A DNA stretch of 64,000 bases from Thermovirgaceae bacterium (GCA_040767805.1 JAXGNU010000006.1:61621-125620), one strand, 5' to 3'; numbered from the stretch's first letter, positions 40,721 to 50,569 are shown. The notes: a model not told the origin generated them from the sequence alone. Made by a program: numbers and translations.

Positions 40721-41024
40721 TCTCGTATCCTCCTTTCGGGATCCAGGTTGTAAGGGGGTCCTCGGCCGGGCCCCCGTCTTTCACCGGGTAACATGGTACC
40801 ATCACGGCCCCGGCGGCACAACAGCCGCTTGGAACCCGCAAACCTGGGGGCAGGGCCTTGAATGGAGCGTTCGGGCGCCTCACCGGGAAGGACTCCCCTC
40901 ACCCTTTACGCTTCACCCAACGGCATCCCGCACCGGCGGCCCCGACCTTCATCTTCGCCGCACCCGCAACGGGGTGGGTTTCCTGTTATCATGCTGCTGT
41001 ATCCCGCGATGGAAGGTGAGAAGA

Positions 41025-42125
41025 ATGAAGTGGAAAGAGAAAATGCCGGCGCCCGTGAGGGACAAGACCTTCGCCGAGTACGGTTCTTCCAGGGAAGAGA
41101 GGCCCGTCCTGGTGGACTGCGCCCTGGGGACCAACCCGCTGGGCTCCCCTCCCTGGGCGAAGGAGTACATCAAGTCAGGGAGCCTTCCGGACCCGGGCGG
41201 CTACCCCGGCGACGACCTACCCCTGCGGAAAGCCCTGTCCGACTCCTGGAACGGCGCCTTTTTCCCCGATGAGATCGTCACCGGCACGGGCTCCATCGGC
41301 CTGATCATAAGCCTGGCGGGGGCCTTTTGCGCACCGGGAGCCACGGTCCTGGGCATCGCGCCCCAGTTCCCCGACGGGCCCATGCACTTCCAGTTCGCCG
41401 GGGCGTCCTACCGGTACCTGCCGCTCACACCCCCGGAGTTCGACCTGGATATTTCCCGCCTCCTGGGTGAGATGACCGGCGATGAATCCCTGGTGTATGT
41501 AGACCGCCCCCACAACCCCACGGGGCAGGTCCCTCCCCTGGCCGAGATGGCCCTGCTGGCCGAGGAGTGCCAAAAAGGGGGATCGCTCCTGGTCATCGAC
41601 GAGGCCTACGGCGATTTCCTCCCGCCCGGGGAGTCGGCCCTCAACCTGGCCTCGCCCTCGGTGGTGGTCCTCCGTTCCTTCTCCAAGGGCCGCGGCCTGG
41701 CCGGGCTGCGCGCCGGCTACTGCGTGATCCGCGACGAAGAGGCCAGGAAGTACCTGCGAAAGGTGGCGCCACCCTTCTCGGTCGGCTCCCTGGCGATGGA
41801 GATGGCCAGGGCGTCCCTTCTCGACGCCGATTATGTCGCCCGCTCCAGGGAGATCGTGAGGGAGGTCAAGGCCAGGGTCCTCCAGGTCCTGGAAAGGACC
41901 GGGGGCATCACCGTGGCCGAGACGGACCCGGAAGTGCCCATCCTCCTGGCCACCTGGGTAGAGGGCCCGTTGGACCTCTACGAGGCCCTGATGGAACAGG
42001 GCATCAGGACCGAGCCGGGAACCTGCTTTTCGGGCCTCGGCCCAGAGAGCGTCCGGCTAAGGGTCCCGGCCCCCGGAGAGCTGGAGACTTTTGAAAGACT
42101 CTGGAAGAGGGCCTTTGAAGAATAA
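41025..42125 (+). CDS. Class I/II PLP aminotransferase (HisC-like)
   Basis: PHNPTG, IDEAY, LRSFSK..GLAGLRAGY. Confidence 0.9.
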   Translation: MKWKEKMPAPVRDKTFAEYGSSREERPVLVDCALGTNPLGSPPWAKEYIKSGSLPDPGGYPGDDLPLRKALSDSWNGAFFPDEIVTGTGSIGLIISLAGAFCAPGATVLGIAPQFPDGPMHFQFAGASYRYLPLTPPEFDLDISRLLGEMTGDESLVYVDRPHNPTGQVPPLAEMALLAEECQKGGSLLVIDEAYGDFLPPGESALNLASPSVVVLRSFSKGRGLAGLRAGYCVIRDEEARKYLRKVAPPFSVGSLAMEMARASLLDADYVARSREIVREVKARVLQVLERTGGITVAETDPEVPILLATWVEGPLDLYEALMEQGIRTEPGTCFSGLGPESVRLRVPAPGELETFERLWKRAFEE

Positions 42126-42150
42126 AGGCAACCTTGACCTGGCCCCGCGT

Positions 42151-42383
42151 TTGACAAGGGCAGGCCGCTGGTATAGACTCCCATAGATACTTCGTTTTTT
42201 AATAATCGATCGCCTCGGAGGGAGGGTGACCCGTGCGAAGAATGAATGACTTTTTCGGCTGCTATTTTTACGGCTATTACTTTTACTTCGCCTTGGGGTC
42301 CCCCTCCTGGCGCGGTTGAGCCGTACTCTTCCGCAACGAACCGGGAAAAAGGGACCCCTAAAAAAGGGGTCCCTTTCTTTTTT
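42151..42383 (+). promoter_or_regulatory. Leader cassette 1: promoter plus Tyr/Phe attenuator
   Basis: TTGACA-N17-TAGACT; antiterminator 42295-42358; terminator 42348-42383. Confidence 0.85.
42233..42319 (+). CDS. Leader peptide, Tyr/Phe-rich, 28 aa
   Basis: MRRMNDFFGCYFYGYYFYFALGSPSWRG; GGAGGG RBS. Confidence 0.85.
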   Translation: MRRMNDFFGCYFYGYYFYFALGSPSWRG

Positions 42384-42491
42384 GGGGAGGTGGTGCCAGG
42401 AGAAGGCCAGGAACGAAAGCGCCGGCGGGCATTAAAGGGCCGCCCTGTAACGGGGCGGGCAGACAACCAGACACAGGAGGTGTCGAACGAA

Positions 42492-43634
42492 ATGAGCGAC
42501 CCCGTTGTGAACCGGGGTTTCTTCAGCAAGTTCATGGGCTCTTCCTTCTACAAGAAGTTCATCCTTCCCGGCCTTATTTCCCAGTCCGTCGTCATCGCCG
42601 GGGGTTACGGCACGGGCCGTGAACTCGTCGAGTACTTCGGTAACTTCGGCAGCCTCGGCGGCATCCTGGGCATGGCGCTGGTGACCACGGTCCTGTGGGC
42701 CATCGTCTACGCCGTGAGTTTCGAATTCGCCCGGACCTTCAAGGTCTACGACTACCGCAGCTTTTTCAAGGAGCTCATCGGGCCCGGCTGGATGCTCTAC
42801 GAGGTCTGCTACATAATCCTCCTCCTCATCATCCTCGGCGTGGTCGGCGCCACTTCGGGGAGCGTCTTCAAGCAGGCCTTCGGGCTGCCGCCCCTGGTGG
42901 GGGCCGCCCTCTTCCTGGCGGGCGTCGTCACGCTGACCTTCTTCGGCAGCTACGTCATCGAGGTCGCCCTCTCGTGGTGGTCCTTTGTCCTCTACGCCGT
43001 CTTCCTGCTCTTCCTCTTGGTGGGGCTCTCCAAGGTGGGGGGACAGATAAGCGCGAACCTGGCTTCCGGGGACATCCGTGAAGGCTGGGCCCTGGGAGGG
43101 TTCAAGTACGCCTTCTACAACCTCGCTACCCTTTCGGCCGTCCTTTTCGCACTCCGCTCCATCGAGACCAGGAAGGAAGCCTTCATATCGGGGGCGATGG
43201 CGTCGATCCTAACGATCCTCCCGGGCTTCTTCCTCTACCTAGTCCTGATGGGCTTCTACCCCGGCATACTCGAGGTGGAACTGCCGACTTACACCATCCT
43301 GTCCCAGATCGCTCCCTGGCTGCTGCCGATCTTCCTGGTGGTCCTCTTCGGGACGATGATCGAGACGGCCGCCGGGTTCATCCACTCCGTCAACGAGAGG
43401 CTCAACTCTTGGATGGTGGACCGCAAGGGCAAGGAGCTCTCCAACGCCGGCCGCGGCCTTGTCGGCGGAGCGATGGCCCTCATCGGTCTCGGCGTCGCCT
43501 CCTTCGGCCTCATCGGCCTCATCGCCAGGGGCTACGGGACCATCAGCTGGGCCTTCTTCCTCTTCCACGGCGTGGCCCTCTTCACGATCGGCCTGTACAA
43601 GATGAACAAGAAGAAGCCCGGGAGCGCCGCCTGA
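42492..43634 (+). CDS. YkvI-like amino-acid transporter (paralog A)
   Basis: SVVIAGGYGTGRELVEYF; about 10 TM. Confidence 0.85.
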   Translation: MSDPVVNRGFFSKFMGSSFYKKFILPGLISQSVVIAGGYGTGRELVEYFGNFGSLGGILGMALVTTVLWAIVYAVSFEFARTFKVYDYRSFFKELIGPGWMLYEVCYIILLLIILGVVGATSGSVFKQAFGLPPLVGAALFLAGVVTLTFFGSYVIEVALSWWSFVLYAVFLLFLLVGLSKVGGQISANLASGDIREGWALGGFKYAFYNLATLSAVLFALRSIETRKEAFISGAMASILTILPGFFLYLVLMGFYPGILEVELPTYTILSQIAPWLLPIFLVVLFGTMIETAAGFIHSVNERLNSWMVDRKGKELSNAGRGLVGGAMALIGLGVASFGLIGLIARGYGTISWAFFLFHGVALFTIGLYKMNKKKPGSAA

Positions 43635-43766
43635 AGCTCCGGGGAGACGCAACGGACCAGGACCCACCCAGGCCTGGAACAAAAGGAATAGCTTCGGAAG
43701 CGGCCCGGCGACCTGTCCGGGCCGTTTTCCCTTGACGCTGTCCGGTCACAAATTGTCCCCTTTCCC

Positions 43767-43996
43767 TTGACAAGACAGGGGCATTAGTATAGTCTTCCCA
43801 AAACGTCAAGTCTTTCATAATGCACATTTTTAAAAGGGAGGGAGACCGATGGGCGTGGAGAAGGGCTGCTTTGGCCGGCTTATGAGCATTATTATCCTCC
43901 TTTCCGCCTTGGGGTCCCCCTCCTGGCGCGGTTGAGCTGTACTCTTCCGCAGCGAACCGGGATAAGGGGACCCCAAAAGGGGTCCCCTTATTTTTT
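43767..43996 (+). promoter_or_regulatory. Leader cassette 2: promoter plus Ile/Leu attenuator
   Basis: TTGACA-N17-TAGTCT; same scaffold; terminator 43962-43996. Confidence 0.85.
43849..43935 (+). CDS. Leader peptide, Ile/Leu-rich, 28 aa
   Basis: MGVEKGCFGRLMSIIILLSALGSPSWRG; GGAGGG RBS. Confidence 0.85.
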   Translation: MGVEKGCFGRLMSIIILLSALGSPSWRG

Positions 43997-44100
43997 GGGG
44001 GTGATGACCAGGAAGAAGCGGGATGGCCGAGGACTGGAGTGTAGGGAGAATTGTCCTTTGTCTGGAAGGGGCAGAGGGCGAAGAAAAGGAGGGAGTACTT

Positions 44101-44424
44101 TTGGAGAAACGGGAGTATTACAGCAGGGATTACGATTTCGCCGAGATCGAGATTGACCCGAGGTTCCTTCAATGCCGGAAGGAGATGATCATTTCCTTCT
44201 CAACCTGGCTGGCCTTTACCGCTATTTCCATTGCGGTGGCCTATAGCCTGGGGAAAGGCCCCGTGGAAAAGTATAAGTACGTCCTGGGACTCCCGCAATG
44301 GTGGTTCGCCGTAATAGTCGTCTCCGTGGTCTTTACGTTCATCGTCATTTTCCTTTCCCTTTTCGTTTTCCAGGACATGGAACTGTCCGATACCGCCGGG
44401 ACCGGCGGGGAGAAAAAAGGGTAA
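44101..44424 (+). CDS. YhdT/DUF997-like small membrane protein
   Basis: DPRF.QC.KE, GLPQWW, FQDMEL; 2 TM; precedes PanF-like gene. Confidence 0.82.
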   Translation: MEKREYYSRDYDFAEIEIDPRFLQCRKEMIISFSTWLAFTAISIAVAYSLGKGPVEKYKYVLGLPQWWFAVIVVSVVFTFIVIFLSLFVFQDMELSDTAGTGGEKKG

Positions 44425-44454
44425 AACCCTTTCCGCAGGAAGAGGTGACATGGC

Positions 44455-45957
44455 ATGGAATGGGAGTTATCTTCAGCAACCCGTACGGTGATCCTCATAA
44501 CCTTCATCGTTTATTCGATAGCCCTTCTGGTCGTCGGTTTTTATTCAAAGCGGAGGATGGACAAGACCGCCCTGGACAAGTTCGTGGAAGAGTTCTATAC
44601 CGGCGGGCGAGGCATGGGGGCCCTGGTCATCGCCCTCATGATCGCGGCGGGGTTATGCAGCGCCGGTACTTTTCTCGGGGGCCCCGGCCTGGGGTACAGC
44701 GTAGGTTTGACGTGGGTCATGGTGCTTTTCGCCCAGAATTTTATGAATTTCTATATCCTCGGCGAGATCGGGAAAAAAGTGGGCATCGTGGCCCGCCGGA
44801 TAAACGCCCAGTCCTACCTTGATCTTTTCGTCTACCGGTACAACCACAACAAGATGGTGGGGCTGATCGGCGTCGCAGGCATCGTGATCTTCCTGGGCAG
44901 TTATGTCGTGGCGCAGTTCGTCGGCGGCGCCCGCCTCTTCGAGTCAATGACGGGACAGCCCTACTGGCTCGGGCTCACTATCTTCGCCCTGGTGGTGCTG
45001 TTCTACGCGGCCTTCGGGGGCATAAGGGGCGTTTCAGCGGCGATCGTGATCCAGGGGCTCGTTATGACCGCCGCGGTGCTGGCGCTCTTCATCGGGGGGC
45101 TCCGGTTCCTCCTCCCCCTGGAATCGTCGGTGAGAAGCATCGCGGAAATGAATCCGGCGCTGGTAACCCCCTGGACCTGGGCGCCCGGCTACCAGTTCTC
45201 CATGTGGGTGGTTTTCGGGCTCGTGATGATCGGTCTGCCCCACGGAGCCATGGGGTGCCTCGTCTACAAGGACACGAAGGCCATGCACCGGGCCATCGTG
45301 ATCGGCACCATCTTCGTGGTCCTTTGGACCTTCGCCCTGGTCTGGATGGGGCACATGACGAAGGCCGTCTTCCCGAACCTCGCCGTGCCGGACCACGCCA
45401 TCCCCACGCTGGCAATGAGGGTTTTGCCACCCTGGCTGGCGGGCGTCACCCTGGCGGGTGTGGCCGGAGCGATACAGTCGACCATCGGGGCGATGGTCAT
45501 CGTCATCAGTTCGACCCTCGTGAAGGACGCCTACCAGGCCTATATCAACCCCAAGGCTGAACCAGCCAAGCTGAAGAAGGTCACTACCTGGTCAACCGTG
45601 GCGATCTGCGTCGCGATCTTCCTCGGCGCCCTGTTCCCGCCGCACGCCCTGGAATGGATAGTGGTCTTCGCCGTCGGCGGGCTGGCCTCGGCTTTCTTCT
45701 GGCCGCTGATCCTCGGCCTTTACTGGATGAGGACCAACGAGTACGGGGCGGCCGCAGGGATGGCCGGCGGCATGGCGACCTACATCATCGGCGCTGGGAA
45801 GTATCTCCCCATCACTTTCGGGATGAACGCGATCGTGGTCTCGCTGGTGGTCTCCCTGGCCCTGACCGTCGGCATCAGCCTCATGACCCCGAAGACGCCG
45901 AAGGGGATCATCATGACCTGGTTTGGGAGGGAATACCCGAAAAAGGTACCGGCCTAA
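44455..45957 (+). CDS. Sodium:solute symporter (PanF-like)
   Basis: EFYTGGRGMG, SAGTFLGGPG, QFVGGARL. Confidence 0.9.
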   Translation: MEWELSSATRTVILITFIVYSIALLVVGFYSKRRMDKTALDKFVEEFYTGGRGMGALVIALMIAAGLCSAGTFLGGPGLGYSVGLTWVMVLFAQNFMNFYILGEIGKKVGIVARRINAQSYLDLFVYRYNHNKMVGLIGVAGIVIFLGSYVVAQFVGGARLFESMTGQPYWLGLTIFALVVLFYAAFGGIRGVSAAIVIQGLVMTAAVLALFIGGLRFLLPLESSVRSIAEMNPALVTPWTWAPGYQFSMWVVFGLVMIGLPHGAMGCLVYKDTKAMHRAIVIGTIFVVLWTFALVWMGHMTKAVFPNLAVPDHAIPTLAMRVLPPWLAGVTLAGVAGAIQSTIGAMVIVISSTLVKDAYQAYINPKAEPAKLKKVTTWSTVAICVAIFLGALFPPHALEWIVVFAVGGLASAFFWPLILGLYWMRTNEYGAAAGMAGGMATYIIGAGKYLPITFGMNAIVVSLVVSLALTVGISLMTPKTPKGIIMTWFGREYPKKVPA

Positions 45958-46010
45958 GCCGGACGGTGAAGCCATCGCCCGGGCCATTCAAGCAAGGAGG
46001 TTAGTCGTGA

Positions 46011-47612
46011 ATGTATGATCTGCTGGTGAAAAATGCGAAGTTGTACGACGGCTGCGGCGGCCCATGGTTCAAAGGGGACCTCGCGGCCAAGGACGGCAGG
46101 ATCGCCGCGATCGGGAGATTGAAGAACGCCGAGGGCCGCACCGTCATCGATGCCGAGGGGAAGGCCCTTTCGCCGGGCTTCATCGACGCCCATACTCATC
46201 TCGATTTCGTCTGCGCTTCGGTCAACAACGCGGCGAGCAAGGTCACCCAGGGGGTTACCACCGAGATCGCGGGCAACTGCGGGCTCTCGCTCATCCCGGT
46301 GAGGCCCGAGACCATCGAGGAGCTCAAGCGGTACCTGGCCCCCTTCATACCCCAGGACGTGAACCTTTCCTGGAAGTGGAGGTCCCTGGGGGACTGGTTC
46401 GACTGCGTCGATGAAAGGGGCAACTCGACCAACGTGGCCTCCCTGGTCGGACACGGGACCCTCCGGATCTACGCCATGGGTTTCGCCGACAGGAAGCCCA
46501 GCGGGCAAGAGATGGCCGAGATGAAGAGGGCCCTGGCCCAGACCATGGAAGAGGGCGCCCTGGGGCTTTCGACGGGGCTCATCTACCCGCCCGGGTGTTA
46601 CTCGGACACGGATGAACTTTGTGAACTATGCGAGGTCGTCGCTGAACACGGCGGTCTTTACGTGACCCACATGCGGAACGAGGGCCCCGAACTGCTGCAG
46701 TCCGTCGAGGAGGCCCTGGAGATCGGGAGGAGAAGCGGATGCCCGGTGCATATTTCCCATCACAAGTCATCGGGTAGGCAGAATTACGGGCTGGTGTCAC
46801 GATCGCTGCAGATGATGGAGGACGCCCGGGCGGAGGGGATCGACGTTACTTGCGATGTCTATCCCTACACGGCGGGGTCCACCCTCATAAGCAGCCTGCT
46901 CCCCAAGTGGGTCCACGAAGGCGGCGTGGGGCGCATGCTTGAGAGGCTGAAGGACCCCGCGTCCAGGCGGAGGATCGCCGACGAACTGGACCGGGTCATC
47001 CCGGGCTGGGAAAACCTGGCGAAGGGCTGCGGCTGGGAGAACATCCTCATCTGCTCCTGCGAGAAGGAACCGTCCTATGAAGGGAAGACCGTCACGGAGA
47101 TCGCCAACGGGAGAGGCACCTCACCGGAGGAGGCACTCTTCGACGTGATCCTGGAGACCGAGGGCAAGGCCACCATCGCGCTCTTCATGATGGACGAGAA
47201 GGATTGCTCGACGGTCCTCGCCCACCCGCTCTCCATGGTGGGCTCCGACGGGTTCGCCAGTTCTTTCAGCGGGGTCCTTTCCAAGGGCAAGCCCCACCCC
47301 CGTTCCTTTGGAACCTTCCCCCGCGTCCTGGGCAAGTACGTCAGGGAAGAGGGCCTCATGTCCCTGGAAAGGGCCGTCTGGAAAATGACGGGCTTCGCGG
47401 CCCAGCGGTTCGGCCTTAAGGACCGGGGTTTCCTGAGGGAAGGGATGGCCGCCGACTTGGTCGTTTTCGACCCCCTCGAGATCATCGACAACGCGACCTA
47501 CAAGGAGCCCCGTCAACAGGCCGAGGGTATCGATTACGTGATCCTGGGCGGGGAGGTCGTCGTAGACCACAAGGTGTATAACGGGAAAACCCTCGGAAGA
47601 TCCCTGAGGTGA
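46011..47612 (+). CDS. N-acyl-D-amino-acid deacylase (D-aminoacylase)
   Basis: PGFIDAHTH, GNCG, THMRNE, ISHHK, GSDG, HPRSFGTFPR. Confidence 0.92.
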   Translation: MYDLLVKNAKLYDGCGGPWFKGDLAAKDGRIAAIGRLKNAEGRTVIDAEGKALSPGFIDAHTHLDFVCASVNNAASKVTQGVTTEIAGNCGLSLIPVRPETIEELKRYLAPFIPQDVNLSWKWRSLGDWFDCVDERGNSTNVASLVGHGTLRIYAMGFADRKPSGQEMAEMKRALAQTMEEGALGLSTGLIYPPGCYSDTDELCELCEVVAEHGGLYVTHMRNEGPELLQSVEEALEIGRRSGCPVHISHHKSSGRQNYGLVSRSLQMMEDARAEGIDVTCDVYPYTAGSTLISSLLPKWVHEGGVGRMLERLKDPASRRRIADELDRVIPGWENLAKGCGWENILICSCEKEPSYEGKTVTEIANGRGTSPEEALFDVILETEGKATIALFMMDEKDCSTVLAHPLSMVGSDGFASSFSGVLSKGKPHPRSFGTFPRVLGKYVREEGLMSLERAVWKMTGFAAQRFGLKDRGFLREGMAADLVVFDPLEIIDNATYKEPRQQAEGIDYVILGGEVVVDHKVYNGKTLGRSLR

Positions 47613-47669
47613 CACGGAGGGCCTTTCCTGCCGGGTTTTCCTCGTCCGGCGCCGGGATCGGCAAGGCTA

Positions 47670-47900
47670 TTGACAAGGGTTCGACGCTGGTATAAAGTGC
47701 GCTGAAGGCAACACATTTCATAATGCATATTTTCTAAAGGAGGGAACCCGGTGAGTGTAAAGAACGGCTCCTTCGGCCGACTTATAAACATTATTATTCT
47801 CCTTTCCGCCTTGGGGTTCCCCTCCTGGCGCGGTTGAGCCGTACTCTTCCGCAACAAACCGGGATAGAGGGACCCCTTAAAAGGGGTCCCTTTCTTTTTT
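47670..47900 (+). promoter_or_regulatory. Leader cassette 3: promoter plus Ile/Leu attenuator
   Basis: TTGACA-N17-TAAAGT; same scaffold; terminator 47866-47900. Confidence 0.85.
47751..47837 (+). CDS. Leader peptide, Ile/Leu-rich, 28 aa
   Basis: MSVKNGSFGRLINIIILLSALGFPSWRG; AAGGAGGG RBS. Confidence 0.85.
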   Translation: MSVKNGSFGRLINIIILLSALGFPSWRG

Positions 47901-48006
47901 CTATTGAGGAGGTGACGCCGCGGGAAACGACAAGAGTCCATGAGTCGGGAACCACCCGTTCCGATCGGATGGGGAAAAAAGCAAAACCCAGGAGGTGTCG
48001 AGTGAA

Positions 48007-49221
48007 ATGAGAGGTCAAGAAAGGGACCGCGGGTTTTTCAGCAAAATGATGGGTTCTTCCTTCTACAAGAAGTTCATCCTTCCCGGCCTTATATCCCAGT
48101 CCGTCGTCATCGCCGGGGGTTACGGTACGGGCCGTGAACTCGTCGAGTACTTCGGCAATTTCGGCAGCCTCGGGGGCATCCTGGGCATGGCCCTGGTGAC
48201 CACGACCCTGTGGGCCGTGGTCTACGCCGCCAGCTATGAATTCGCCAGGACCTTCAAGGTTTACGACTACCGGGGATTCTTCAAGGAACTTCTCGGGCCG
48301 GGCTGGATGCTCTACGAGGTGTGTTACCTCGTGCTCCTACTTATCGTCCTCGGCGTCGTCGGGGCCGCCTCGGGAAGCATCTTCAAGCAGGCCTTCGGGC
48401 TGCCGCCCCTGGTGGGGGCCGCCCTCTTCCTGGCGGGCGTCGTCACGCTGACCTTCTTCGGCAGCTACGTCATCGAGGTCGCCCTCTCGTGGTGGTCCTT
48501 TGTCCTCTACGCCGTCTTCCTGCTCTTCCTCTTCGTGGGGCTGGCCAAGGTGGGGGGCCAGATAAGCGCGAACCTGGCTTCCGGGGACATCCGGGAAGGC
48601 TGGGCCCTGGGAGGTTTCAAGTATGCCTTTTATAACCTGGGCACCCTCCCGGCCGTACTCTTCGCCCTCAATTACATCGAGACCAGGAGAGAGGCCATCA
48701 TCTCGGGTGTATTGACGTCGGTCCTGACGATCCTCCCCGGTTTCTTCCTCTACCTGGTCCTGATGGGCTTCTACCCCGGCATACTCGAGGCGGAACTGCC
48801 CGCGTACACCATATTGTCCCAGATAGCCCCCTGGCTGCTGCCGATCTTCCTGGTGGTCCTCTTCGGGACGATGATCGAGACGGCCGTCGGCTTCATCCAC
48901 GCCGTGAACGAACGGGTCAACTCCTGGATGGTGGACCGGAGGAACACGGAACTGACCAAGGCCAACCGCGGCGTCCTCGGGGGCGTCATGGGCCTGATCG
49001 GGCTCGGCGTGGCCTCCTTCGGCCTCATCGGCCTCATTGCCAAGGGCTACGGCACCATCAGCTGGGGCTTTTTCCTGCTCCACGGGGTGGGCCTCTTCAC
49101 GATAGGCCTGTACAAGATGAGCAAAAAGGGCGGGAAGGCGTCCGCCCGATCCCGCGGCGAGGGGAGGTTGTCCGCTGATGGATTGGAGATCCCTGGCCGG
49201 GTTGACCGACAGGAATATTGA
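48007..49221 (+). CDS. YkvI-like amino-acid transporter (paralog B)
   Basis: Close paralog of 42492-43634. Confidence 0.85.
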   Translation: MRGQERDRGFFSKMMGSSFYKKFILPGLISQSVVIAGGYGTGRELVEYFGNFGSLGGILGMALVTTTLWAVVYAASYEFARTFKVYDYRGFFKELLGPGWMLYEVCYLVLLLIVLGVVGAASGSIFKQAFGLPPLVGAALFLAGVVTLTFFGSYVIEVALSWWSFVLYAVFLLFLFVGLAKVGGQISANLASGDIREGWALGGFKYAFYNLGTLPAVLFALNYIETRREAIISGVLTSVLTILPGFFLYLVLMGFYPGILEAELPAYTILSQIAPWLLPIFLVVLFGTMIETAVGFIHAVNERVNSWMVDRRNTELTKANRGVLGGVMGLIGLGVASFGLIGLIAKGYGTISWGFFLLHGVGLFTIGLYKMSKKGGKASARSRGEGRLSADGLEIPGRVDRQEY

Positions 49222-50569
49222 AAAAAGCTGCGCCGTCATCGAAGGTGAAGAGAGGGTGATACCCGGGGCCGTGTCGATAAAGTACTTTCCCATGGCCATC
49301 GAAAAGGCCCGGGGCTCCCTCGTCTGGGACGCCGACGGGAACAGGTACATCGACTTCCTGACCAGCGCCGCCGTCTATAACGCGGGCCACTGTCACCCCG
49401 CGGTGGTCCAGGCCGTCAAGGAGCAAGTGGAACGGCTCCAGAATTACACGATGGTCTATTTCTACAACGACCGGCCGGTCAGGCTGGCCGAACTCCTTAT
49501 CTCCACCACCCCCGGGGATGTCCCTAAAAAGGCCGTCTTCGGCTTCTCCGGGTCCGACGGCGTCGACGCCGCCATAAGGGCCGCCCGCGCTTTCACCGGG
49601 AGGAGGAAGATCCTCAGCTTCAAGGGATCCTACCACGGCATGACCACGGCCGCCCTTTCGGTGACGGGCATCGTCAGCGACGAGACCAAGAAGGACGTCT
49701 GCCTCGACCCCCACGTGATCTTCGCCGAGTATCCCGATCCCTACCGCAACTCCTGGGGGATCGACGGCTATACCGATCCCGAAGCCCTTTCGGCCAAGGC
49801 GATGGAGTCCATCGCGGAGCTCCTCGAAAAACACCGGGGCGATGTGGCGGCCGTCCTGATCGAACCCGCCCAGGGTGACGGGGGGATGATCTTCCCCCCG
49901 GGGGAATTCATGGCCAGGCTCAGGGAGGTCACGGAAGGGGAAGGGATAGTGCTCATCGACGAGGAGGTCCAGACCGGAATGGGCCGCAGCGGGCGCTGGT
50001 GGGCCATCGAACACTTCGGCGTGGTCCCCGACCTCATCGTCACCGCCAAGGCGCTGGGCGGCGGGCTCCCCATTTCCGCCGTCGTGGGCAGAGCCGAGAT
50101 CCTCGACGCCGTCCCGTCACCGCTGTTCGCCTACACCCACGCCGGCCACGCCGTCAGTTGCGCTTCGGCGGAGGCGATGATCAAGGTCGTGCGGGACGAG
50201 GGGCTCGCCGCCGCCGCCGAGGAAAAGGGGGAGGTCCTTGCCGACTGGTTCAGGTCGAGGGCCGAGCGGTATCCCTTCATCGGGGACATCCGCCAGAAGG
50301 GGCTGCTTATGGGTGTCGAGGTGGTATCGGACAGGGAAAAGAAGACACCCGACAAGGCCATGGCAATGAAGATATCCTGGGCCGCCTGGGAGAGGGGCCT
50401 CATCCTGATCACCTTCGGAAAACACGGGAACGTGGTGCGGCTGGCCCCGCCGCTCAACATCCCCGACGAACTCCTCCAGGAAGCCCTGGGGATAATGGAT
50501 GCCTCCCTCGAGGACGCGGCGTCAGGAAACGTGCCCGCAGCCATCCTGCCGCTCCTCAAGGGCTGGTAG
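49178..50569 (+). CDS. Class III PLP enzyme, probable amino-acid racemase/Ile 2-epimerase
   Basis: SGSDG, SYHG, IEPAQGDGG, EEVQTGMGR, AKALGGG. Confidence 0.8.
   Translation: MDWRSLAGLTDRNIEKSCAVIEGEERVIPGAVSIKYFPMAIEKARGSLVWDADGNRYIDFLTSAAVYNAGHCHPAVVQAVKEQVERLQNYTMVYFYNDRPVRLAELLISTTPGDVPKKAVFGFSGSDGVDAAIRAARAFTGRRKILSFKGSYHGMTTAALSVTGIVSDETKKDVCLDPHVIFAEYPDPYRNSWGIDGYTDPEALSAKAMESIAELLEKHRGDVAAVLIEPAQGDGGMIFPPGEFMARLREVTEGEGIVLIDEEVQTGMGRSGRWWAIEHFGVVPDLIVTAKALGGGLPISAVVGRAEILDAVPSPLFAYTHAGHAVSCASAEAMIKVVRDEGLAAAAEEKGEVLADWFRSRAERYPFIGDIRQKGLLMGVEVVSDREKKTPDKAMAMKISWAAWERGLILITFGKHGNVVRLAPPLNIPDELLQEALGIMDASLEDAASGNVPAAILPLLKGW

Follow-up and report, generated by a model that had tools for sequence, protein, structure and literature searches.

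Three predicted leader-peptide attenuators sharing one RNA scaffold with exchanged amino-acid sensors in a Thermovirgaceae bacterium

What three nearly identical intergenic regions do in front of genes for amino-acid uptake and salvage is the question raised by a stretch of 64,000 nucleotides (nt) from a Thermovirgaceae bacterium (GCA_040767805.1 JAXGNU010000006.1:61621-125620), here called the window, in which all positions are counted unless another contig is named. Reading of the sequence at 41800-48300 and alignment of the three regions revealed three cassettes with one common layout, composed of a promoter, a Shine–Dalgarno (SD) sequence, an upstream open reading frame (uORF) of 28 codons, an antiterminator, and a terminator, just where a preliminary description of this DNA had placed them. 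Judged from sequence, each cassette is very probably a ribosome-mediated (leader-peptide) transcription attenuator, and the three most likely switch on genes of uptake and D-amino-acid salvage during a shortage of Tyr/Phe or Ile/Leu. The evidence consists of the sequences themselves, their alternative folds, the covariation, the conservation of the uORF, and the match between leader codons and downstream genes.

The cassettes, all on the plus strand, share a GGAGGG SD and a uORF that ends in ALG(S/F)PSWRG followed by the stop codon. Their 25-nt core, GGGGTCCCCCTCCTGGCGCGGTTGA, lies at 42295-42319, 43911-43935, and 47813-47837 with 0, 0, and 1 mismatches, respectively, while none of these copies was expected in the window from 100 dinucleotide shuffles, and a BLAST search of the own assembly (1.65 Mb, 80.6% complete) with a 96-nt core returned the three window copies and no others. 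The promoters are TTGACA-17-TAGACT at 42151-42179 and TTGACA-17-TAAAGT at 47670-47698, both with 10/12 matches in a consensus scan, and TTGACA-17-TAGTCT at 43767-43795, which was recognized by eye as its second hexamer lies under the scan threshold. The TTGACA-N17 promoter described earlier thus stands with a correction of wording, the −10 at this spacing being TAGACT, TAGTCT, or TAAAGT and not the TATAGA just upstream.

In cassette 1, the SD GGAGGGAGGG together with GACCC makes up segment 1 (42217-42232), which pairs with the 3' end of the uORF in the minimum free energy (MFE) fold; 13 nt of segment 2 are paired to the SD region in the full-length fold (L001). The uORF (42233-42319) has a GTG start and 28 codons plus TGA, encoding MRRMNDFFGCYFYGYYFYFALGSPSWRG, and its sensor block at codons 7-19 (42251-42289) holds five Tyr and five Phe codons in 13. 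Segment 2, GGGGTCCCCCTCCTGGCGCGG, lies inside the uORF (42295-42315); it serves as the antiterminator's 5' arm and, alternatively, pairs with the SD region. The antiterminator 3' arm (42331-42358) consists of CCGC, CCGGGA, and GGGACCCC, the last block doubling as the 5' arm of the intrinsic terminator (42348-42383), for which the scan found a 12-bp stem at 42348-42376 plus TTTCTTTTTT, with a hairpin energy of −21.4 kcal/mol. The uORF of cassette 2 (43849-43935) starts with ATG and has 28 codons plus TGA, encoding MGVEKGCFGRLMSIIILLSALGSPSWRG, with the sensor ATT ATT ATC CTC CTT at 43888-43902; segment 2, the inner hairpin, the antiterminator 3' arm, and the terminator span 43911-43996, with the terminator stem at 43964-43989 and the U tract reaching 43996. 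The scan caught only the inner five pairs of this stem, the full stem being read by eye, and the fold energies are −42.1 kcal/mol for the antiterminator and −26.5 kcal/mol for the terminator. Similarly, cassette 3 has a uORF with a GTG start and 28 codons plus TGA (47751-47837) encoding MSVKNGSFGRLINIIILLSALGFPSWRG, the sensor ATT ATT ATT CTC CTT at 47790-47804, and segment 2, inner hairpin, antiterminator 3' arm, and terminator at 47813-47900, with a 12-bp stem at 47866-47893 and a U tract to 47900.

The scaffold is conserved well beyond this assembly. The core was matched in nine of 19 genomes of the same family, from five of seven genera, and in all 14 distinct same-family elements (five genera), the uORF is exactly 28 codons long with A(L/S)G(S/F)PSWR(G/R) before the stop, while the middle of the peptide varies as YFYGYYFYF, IIILL, or GII(L/R)Y; segment 2 is nearly invariant over approximately 30 nt across the five genera. 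A covariance model built on these 14 elements with the antiterminator as its structure (R1) matched 26 of the 151 sampled genomes of the phylum, and a second model rebuilt from 41 hits (R2) matched 86 of the 151 sampled Synergistota genomes and 39 of 53 genera, with more than 219 hits in total and up to 11 copies in one genome (G138). In a pattern scan of genome contigs, most of the matches listed were chance occurrences in GC-rich genomes, and of 29 candidates retained, four proved genuine (L054, L062, L066, and L098), all from Synergistota. The own genome (G000) has five R2 copies: the three cassettes, C4:125619-125735, and C15:10392-10497. A further 60 loci gave 64 R2 matches, of which 63 were analyzed (one place had been retrieved twice and was dropped) and, with the 42 earlier ones, make up a set of 105 elements.

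Every one of the 105 elements contains a start-to-stop reading frame that ends inside the structure. A strict test demanded GGAGG, GAGG, or GGAG no more than 18 nt upstream, a length of 20 codons or more, and a stop codon in the appropriate window; it was passed by 89/105 elements, compared with 7% of dinucleotide shuffles and 6/105 reverse complements. In this window of 63% GC, the sensor runs favor rare codons: among 33 long window ORFs, some of which may be spurious, ATT makes up 6% of Ile, TTT 16% of Phe, and TAT 26% of Tyr codons, whereas the sensor runs use ATT at five of six Ile, TTT at three of five Phe, and TAT at two of five Tyr positions. This bias may serve slow decoding or an unstructured sensor region.

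The antiterminator was predicted by RNAalifold from an unfitted alignment of 14 elements, and its consensus includes all the pairings named in the preliminary description, that is, GGGGTCCC at 42295-42302 with 42351-42358, TCCTGG with CCGGGA, and GCGG with CCGC; the UGA stop codon, said to lie within the hairpin, sits in the loop of the inner hairpin. The TCC>TTC change, which turns S into F in the peptide, does keep its pairing through U.G, the antiterminator pair 88:143 being CG in seven and UG in seven of the 14 relatives. In 41 sequences aligned to R1, a fit that favors the antiterminator model, its pairs are formed in 96.2% of cells against 83.5 ± 0.7 in shuffles, and 15 of 18 pairs have changed on both sides against 7.1 ± 1.4, a value reached by none of 500 shuffles. 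Sliding one arm of the antiterminator brings pairing down to 38-61%.

Both RNA states were then recovered by folding. In the nascent RNA, cut just ahead of the terminator's 3' arm, the partner of segment 2 lies beyond the stop codon in 105/105 elements, and in the full-length untranslated RNA, the terminator is formed in the MFE structure of 102/105. A third, predicted helix joins the SD region to segment 2 (GGAGGG..ACCC with GGGU.CCCCUCC); cassettes 1 and 2 adopt it as their MFE state, and it appears in the MFE structure of the full-length RNA in 72/105 elements. The mean energy of this duplex is −20.1 kcal/mol, compared with −14.7 kcal/mol when the SD flanks alone are shuffled, and it beats 95% of its own flank shuffles in 53/105 elements (27/42 among the first 42). 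Its support comes from folding and duplex controls and not from a formal pair count. In addition, the S>F change is compensated in this helix, with UCC facing GACC and UUC facing AACC, in two orthologous pairs, namely, cassette 1 of G000/G002 versus G003 and cassette 2 of G000 versus G002.

The sensor composition, counted in the 12 residues before segment 2, follows the gene downstream. The leaders of acetolactate synthase (ALS) small subunit genes (ilvH) contain 7-11 I/L/V and at most one F/Y/W in 12/12 cases, while those of PaaK-like AMP-ligases contain 3-6 F/Y/W and at most two I/L/V in 9/9; panB is preceded by six Val (2/2), a small ACT protein or ilvC by 7-8 Ile (4/4), threonine-dehydratase-like genes by III plus Met (3/3), and SBP_bac_3 genes by 5-6 Phe (2/2). 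Single leaders were found with five Leu before a leuC-like aconitase-family gene, with four Leu before a leuA/cimA-like gene, and with F4 Y2 W1 before an SSF symporter. The leuA/cimA-like gene (HMGL-like plus LeuA_dimer) follows the own genome's fifth copy, at G000:C15:10392-10497 on the minus strand, whose leader reads MRASVPQGSNAMMIAILVLALTLDFGSPPGTPTG up to its stop (L191). Six more ALS-type loci lie outside the Pfam submission, and in approximately 40 elements, the first ORF is without a family or unresolved. Among the YkvI genes (eight by BLASTP), those of other genera have mixed Ile, Tyr, and Phe leaders, such as FIYGIILY, IFIISYYFISF, and LYVYFIYFIIF; in the window's genus, the duplicated ykvI pair has split into one copy with a Tyr/Phe leader and one with an Ile/Leu leader. 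No other argument speaks as strongly for a leader peptide, or against a protein ligand common to all elements, as this match between sensor and gene. The proposal of ribosome-mediated attenuation has survived all the computational tests that came with it: Rfam holds no family at gathering score, covariance models find relatives across the phylum, these relatives keep the uORF, both states fold as required, and the sensor codons track the downstream genes.

In the proposed course of events, transcription would start approximately 45 nt upstream of the strong SD, and a ribosome would load on the nascent RNA and translate the 28-codon uORF. With plentiful charged tRNA, it would reach the UGA in the inner-hairpin loop and cover most of segment 2 (GGGGUCCCCCUCCUGGCGCGG), whereupon segments 3 and 4 would fold as the terminator and transcription would stop. 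With scarce charged tRNA (Tyr/Phe for cassette 1; Ile/Leu for cassettes 2 and 3), it would stall at codons 7-19 or 14-18, 12-24 nt upstream of segment 2, which would then be free to pair with segment 3 once that is made; as a kinetic trap, the antiterminator would keep the terminator from forming and let polymerase enter the genes. In RNA that no ribosome has reached, the SD region (GGAGGG..ACCC) would pair with segment 2 and the terminator would form, giving a default OFF state. This helix, in which the SD region captures the uORF 3' end, had no part in the preliminary account; as an anti-antiterminator, it would make untranslated RNA terminate.

Several points weigh against this picture of attenuation. 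All elements are related by descent and are not independent, so every count given here overstates its support. We infer translation of the uORF, stalling, its timing, and the response to amino acids, and the masking of the antiterminator strand by a ribosome finishing the uORF is read from positions only; by standard footprints, a ribosome at the UGA is estimated to leave approximately 7 nt (GGGGUCC) bare, so that segment 2 would be masked in part. The SD helix is missing from the MFE structure in 33/105 elements, is no better than flank-shuffled controls in 52/105, and is absent from the Phe/PaaK subgroup; moreover, the scheme would require it to be kept open while a ribosome is stalled in its loop. 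In 38 of 42 elements, the terminator state has the lowest energy as long as none of segments 2-4 is occupied, so the antiterminator must act as a kinetic trap, which is assumed by analogy with trp, where the antiterminator is likewise kinetic. The two YkvI proteins of the window are 85.5% identical, and distinct substrates for the two sensors are accordingly not evident. RNA-library contigs of close strains (three runs from three studies: X15, X16, and X17) cover leaders and genes, and among them, an X16 contig (record 8, 42317-42564) bridges terminator 1 into ykvI-1 and an 83-nt X15 contig (record 2) ends at 42383; these contigs were assembled over a threefold repeat, where depths add up and ends follow the repeat borders, and they therefore demonstrate neither termination nor read-through nor 3' ends. 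One contig joint, 47873>43971, was discarded as an artefact of the same repeat.

The best of the competing explanations is that of the literature. By coordinates and description, the scaffold coincides with PBC-10, a motif that a study of Thermovirga lienii (Stav et al., 2019, BMC Microbiol 19:66, PMC6429828) described from 53-58 examples in Synergistia and metagenomes, so the earlier statement that no description of this family was known did not hold. According to the available portions of that paper, PBC-10 has a terminator, alternative structures, and a possible pseudoknot; is always co-oriented with the next gene; precedes amino-acid transporters, ilvH, and phenylacetate-CoA ligase; and often occurs in several copies per genome, while MRC-9 is a separate motif with the function "?" (PMC6429828). 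On G007:C1, the covariance models found 318927-319035, within PBC-10 at 318758-319077, and 345939-346046, within MRC-9 at 345639-346300 (published coordinates from the same portions of PMC6429828); the uORF at this PBC-10 locus reads MARAQKLQRTIYVDGFYFYYFTGVGPPQRFDA up to its stop and lies upstream of a ligase-like gene. PBC-10 was named "cautiously" as a protein-binding candidate on account of a palindrome near the P1 stem, as far as the available text goes (PMC6429828). Under such protein-mediated antitermination, a dimeric RNA-binding protein on the near-palindromic GGGGUCCCC/GGGACCCC would decide on the terminator, and the uORF would be incidental. A single regulator of many operons would account for the common scaffold, and segment 2 is conserved over approximately 30 nt in five genera beyond what pairing alone needs. 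However, this near-invariance follows from three overlapping constraints, that is, two pairing partners and coding, and one protein leaves unexplained both the dependence of the block ahead of segment 2 on the target gene for its amino acids and the retention of SD and ORF so far above the shuffled level (89/105 vs. 7%). No candidate protein gene was linked to the elements in the loci examined, and protein-mediated control is considered improbable.

Slightly less probable still is a nascent-peptide arrest of the TnaC/SecM type, in which the C-terminal ALGSPSWRG (GSPPG elsewhere) would stall the ribosome according to a free ligand or EF-P status, with termination set by this stall and not by tRNA charging. 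The C-terminal peptide is invariant in 14/14 close relatives, many relatives encode PPG or PPS, which are EF-P-dependent pause motifs, and a pause there would sit on segment 2. However, a stall on segment 2 would promote termination and not induction, and the swapped hydrophobic blocks that match target genes would be left unexplained. Furthermore, the GGUCCCC(U)CC nucleotides are translated as GSPSW, GSPPG, or GGPPSGG depending on the subfamily; since the frame varies over the GGUCCCC core, the C-terminal "motif" reflects a constraint on the RNA and not a conserved peptide. The least credible proposal is that the uORFs are functional hydrophobic micro-proteins (membrane- or lipoprotein-like) with the hairpin as their own terminator and separately expressed downstream genes, for although the peptides are hydrophobic and several relatives close the hydrophobic run with a lipobox-like L-I-(S/T)-C-G, a promoter scan of the window found no second promoter between terminator and gene, the peptide sequences are unconserved save for composition and the RNA-constrained tail, the lipobox-like Cys is W, S, V, or G in relatives, and the covarying alternative antiterminator would have no role. 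The lipobox idea, raised for the group-B peptides, was itself rejected as the Cys is unconserved.

If the cassettes are attenuators, the genes behind them indicate what is being controlled, with cassette 1 preceding ykvI-1; cassette 2 preceding genes for a DUF997 protein, a PanF-like symporter, and a D-aminoacylase; and cassette 3 preceding ykvI-2 and a racemase gene. The ykvI-1 gene (42492-43634, plus strand) encodes a YkvI-family membrane protein and putative amino-acid permease of 380 amino acids (aa), which is so named in the NCBI and JGI annotation of relatives; ykvI-1 gave no Pfam hit, and YkvI is without a Pfam or NCBIfam model, so that the name comes from the source annotations. It stands alone downstream of cassette 1, with its own terminator-like hairpin near 43700. 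The start at 42492 is preferred because an SD plus ATG at 42492 and 48007 is common to both ykvI copies; a longer form from GTG 42390 (413-416 aa), called by some gene callers, was rejected as its frame is closed in cassette 3. The genes behind cassette 2, all on the plus strand, encode a small DUF997 (YhdT-like) membrane protein (44023-44424; Pfam PF06196, E 4.4e-17), whose true start may be a TTG near 44103; a sodium:solute symporter of the PanF type (44455-45957; PF00474; NCBIfam TIGR02119 panF, 384 bits vs. a cut-off of 328); and a D-aminoacylase-like amidohydrolase (46011-47612; PF07969; Protein Data Bank D-aminoacylase 1m7j, E 2.5e-100), whose best solved relatives are D-aminoacylases. 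Behind cassette 3, also on the plus strand, lie ykvI-2 (48007-49221; BLASTP identity to ykvI-1 as above) and a gene for an amino-acid racemase of the class-III aminotransferase fold, similar to the broad-specificity BAR enzyme (49178-50569). In close strains, RNA-library contigs of two runs lack 73 nt in 44010-44084, between terminator 2 and the DUF997 gene, which suggests a strain-level indel in the spacer.

By homology, it is well founded to read the window's regulon as hydrophobic amino-acid salvage, made up of uptake and D-amino-acid salvage. The YkvI permeases would import L- or D-forms, the PanF-like symporter and the D-aminoacylase would import and then deacylate N-acyl-D-amino acids, and the racemase would convert D-forms to L-forms; that the PanF-like carrier takes N-acyl-D-amino acids is inferred from the neighboring gene. 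The preliminary wording, "uptake and D-amino-acid salvage rather than biosynthesis", therefore agrees by homology with the window genes and fails across the phylum, where the scaffold also precedes ilvH, ilvC, leuA-like, and panB genes. Biosynthetic capacity found in the own genome amounts to a weak hit to part of KARI_N (26.5 bits) and a partial hit to PDT, while PaaK was not found; at 80.6% completeness, these results say nothing firm on auxotrophy.

Further features of the leaders deserve mention. Directly downstream of each U tract is an extended SD-like word, GGGGAGGTGGTG (42384-42395), GGGGGTGATGA (43997-44007), and GAGGAGGTGA (47906-47915), which reads GGGGGTGATC in other genera, a near-perfect complement of the 16S 3' end; it lies approximately 100 nt upstream of the real SD and ATG of the gene and is not followed by a usable start codon. 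Between the −10 and the SD, TTTCATAATGCA(C/T)AT is conserved in cassettes 2 and 3 (43813-43827 and 47716-47730) and in the YkvI leaders of four other genera and is absent from cassette 1, while other subfamilies instead carry AATATTCAGACA just downstream of the −10; these words could be a second control site or a 5'-end signal.

Two further arrangements were found across the phylum. Tandem Ile-rich copies of the scaffold lie approximately 240 nt apart in G138 and G148 (L181, 217-332 and 458-571; L188, 222-336 and 462-642), with an 83-aa ACT-domain ORF after the first copy and ilvC after the second. A subgroup with I/V/L-rich leaders ending in GSPPGAAVAL and a stop has a conserved 51-54-aa ORF 45-82 nt past the U tract, at L172:484-636 (G000:C4, outside the window), L170:1663-1824, L153:1257-1418 (minus strand), L155:1689-1850, L160:1300-1455 (minus strand), and L233:376-531. 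This ORF has an SD plus ATG and an invariant C-terminus, WRGPFEG(Y/F)R followed by the stop, and is followed by an AddB-like gene; its protein gave no Pfam match. The G007 member of this subgroup lies inside the published MRC-9 coordinates.

More broadly, there is about an even chance that one modular scaffold, comprising PBC-10 and MRC-9, is the general amino-acid sensor of Synergistota, retargeted by approximately ten sensor codons and by moves of a cassette of approximately 240 nt from promoter to terminator, with segment 2 as an anti-SD mimic that sequesters the leader's own SD and restricts the device to co-transcriptional read-out. The leaders of cassettes 2 and 3 agree at 20 of 28 residues (by eye), yet unrelated operons follow them. 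If the scaffold is such a general sensor, the substrates of orphan genes could be read directly from leader codons: YkvI would transport Ile/Tyr/Phe, along with the D-forms fed to the racemase, and the PanF-like symporter and D-aminoacylase would form a salvage route for N-acyl-D-Leu/Ile. PBC-10, and MRC-9 listed separately from it, would turn from a motif of uncertain mechanism into a testable family of leader-peptide attenuators; its evolutionary pattern is unusual, with a single scaffold and many swapped sensors in at least 86 of the 151 sampled Synergistota genomes. It would also offer substrate predictions for uncharacterized YkvI permeases and for the route of PanF-like symporter, D-aminoacylase, and racemase in amino-acid-fermenting digester bacteria. 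Since the mechanism is that of the textbook, the value lies in annotation and evolution and not in a new principle.

Comparison with known systems places the scaffold as follows. A permissive Rfam scan of 41000-49000 gave 18 matches with E up to 10, none of them near its gathering score; Phe_leader (RF01859), whose gathering score is 55, reached 24.0 and 20.8 bits through an alignment limited to the terminator, and twelve related loci gave nothing at gathering level, be it a riboswitch, a T-box, or another family. The PBC-10 motif is absent from Rfam 15. The later literature searched makes no mention of PBC-10, no paper in the literature searched reads a PBC-10-type motif as a leader-peptide attenuator (a search partly swamped by the word "synergistic"), and a search on Synergistetes with attenuation, leader peptide, or uORF returned the two papers of the PBC-10 group and a HisR study without a Synergistetes attenuator. 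The likeness to PBC-10 extends to a Synergistia element with a terminator and alternative structure, ilvH, paaK, and transporter targets, and multiple copies, matched by coordinates and description, while the difference is that the paper reads a protein-binding RNA and, in its available portions, mentions no uORF or sensor codons (PMC6429828).

The enterobacterial attenuators of the textbook (trpL, pheL, ilvL/ivbL, leuL, and hisL) are alike in having an SD and a short ORF rich in regulatory codons, a stop before or inside the antiterminator, pairings of segments 2:3 and 3:4 together with a putative 1:2 pairing, and a terminator more stable than the antiterminator, which implies kinetic control. 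They differ in that there is no sequence relation, the Phe_leader score covering only the terminator; that segment 1 in Synergistota is the SD region of the uORF itself and not coding; that many amino acids and over ten kinds of target are handled by one homologous scaffold, whereas the enterobacterial leaders are mutually unrelated; and that the targets here include permeases and salvage enzymes. In Firmicutes, uORF-12 is an aromatic attenuator candidate before amino-acid transporters, as given in the available part of Table S1 (Stav et al., 2019, PMC6429828); it is likewise a candidate leader-peptide attenuator, from another phylum, and because it precedes transporters, attenuator control of uptake is not new. 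The T-boxes of Firmicutes have a role for which the Synergistota scaffold is suggested as a counterpart.

The closest functional analogue of cassette 3 is the cluster of PH0137 (YkvI) and PH0138 (BAR) in Pyrococcus horikoshii, with the same YkvI-racemase gene pair, where, according to the available part of the source, the BAR enzyme acts on Met, Leu, Ile, Phe, and others, and expression of the pair, which is under the repressor DARP, rises when L-Ile is lacking and when D-allo-Ile takes its place (PMC13628549). The controlling factor in that cluster is a protein, a repressor with L-Ile or D-allo-Ile as its ligand (PMC13628549, same part), whereas the leader peptide of cassette 3 would sense charged tRNA and not the D-form. 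The mechanism is a classical one, and the RNA motif had appeared in print before; what is new is its mechanistic re-reading, the putative first helix that sequesters the SD, the breadth of sensor swapping, and the salvage regulon of the window.

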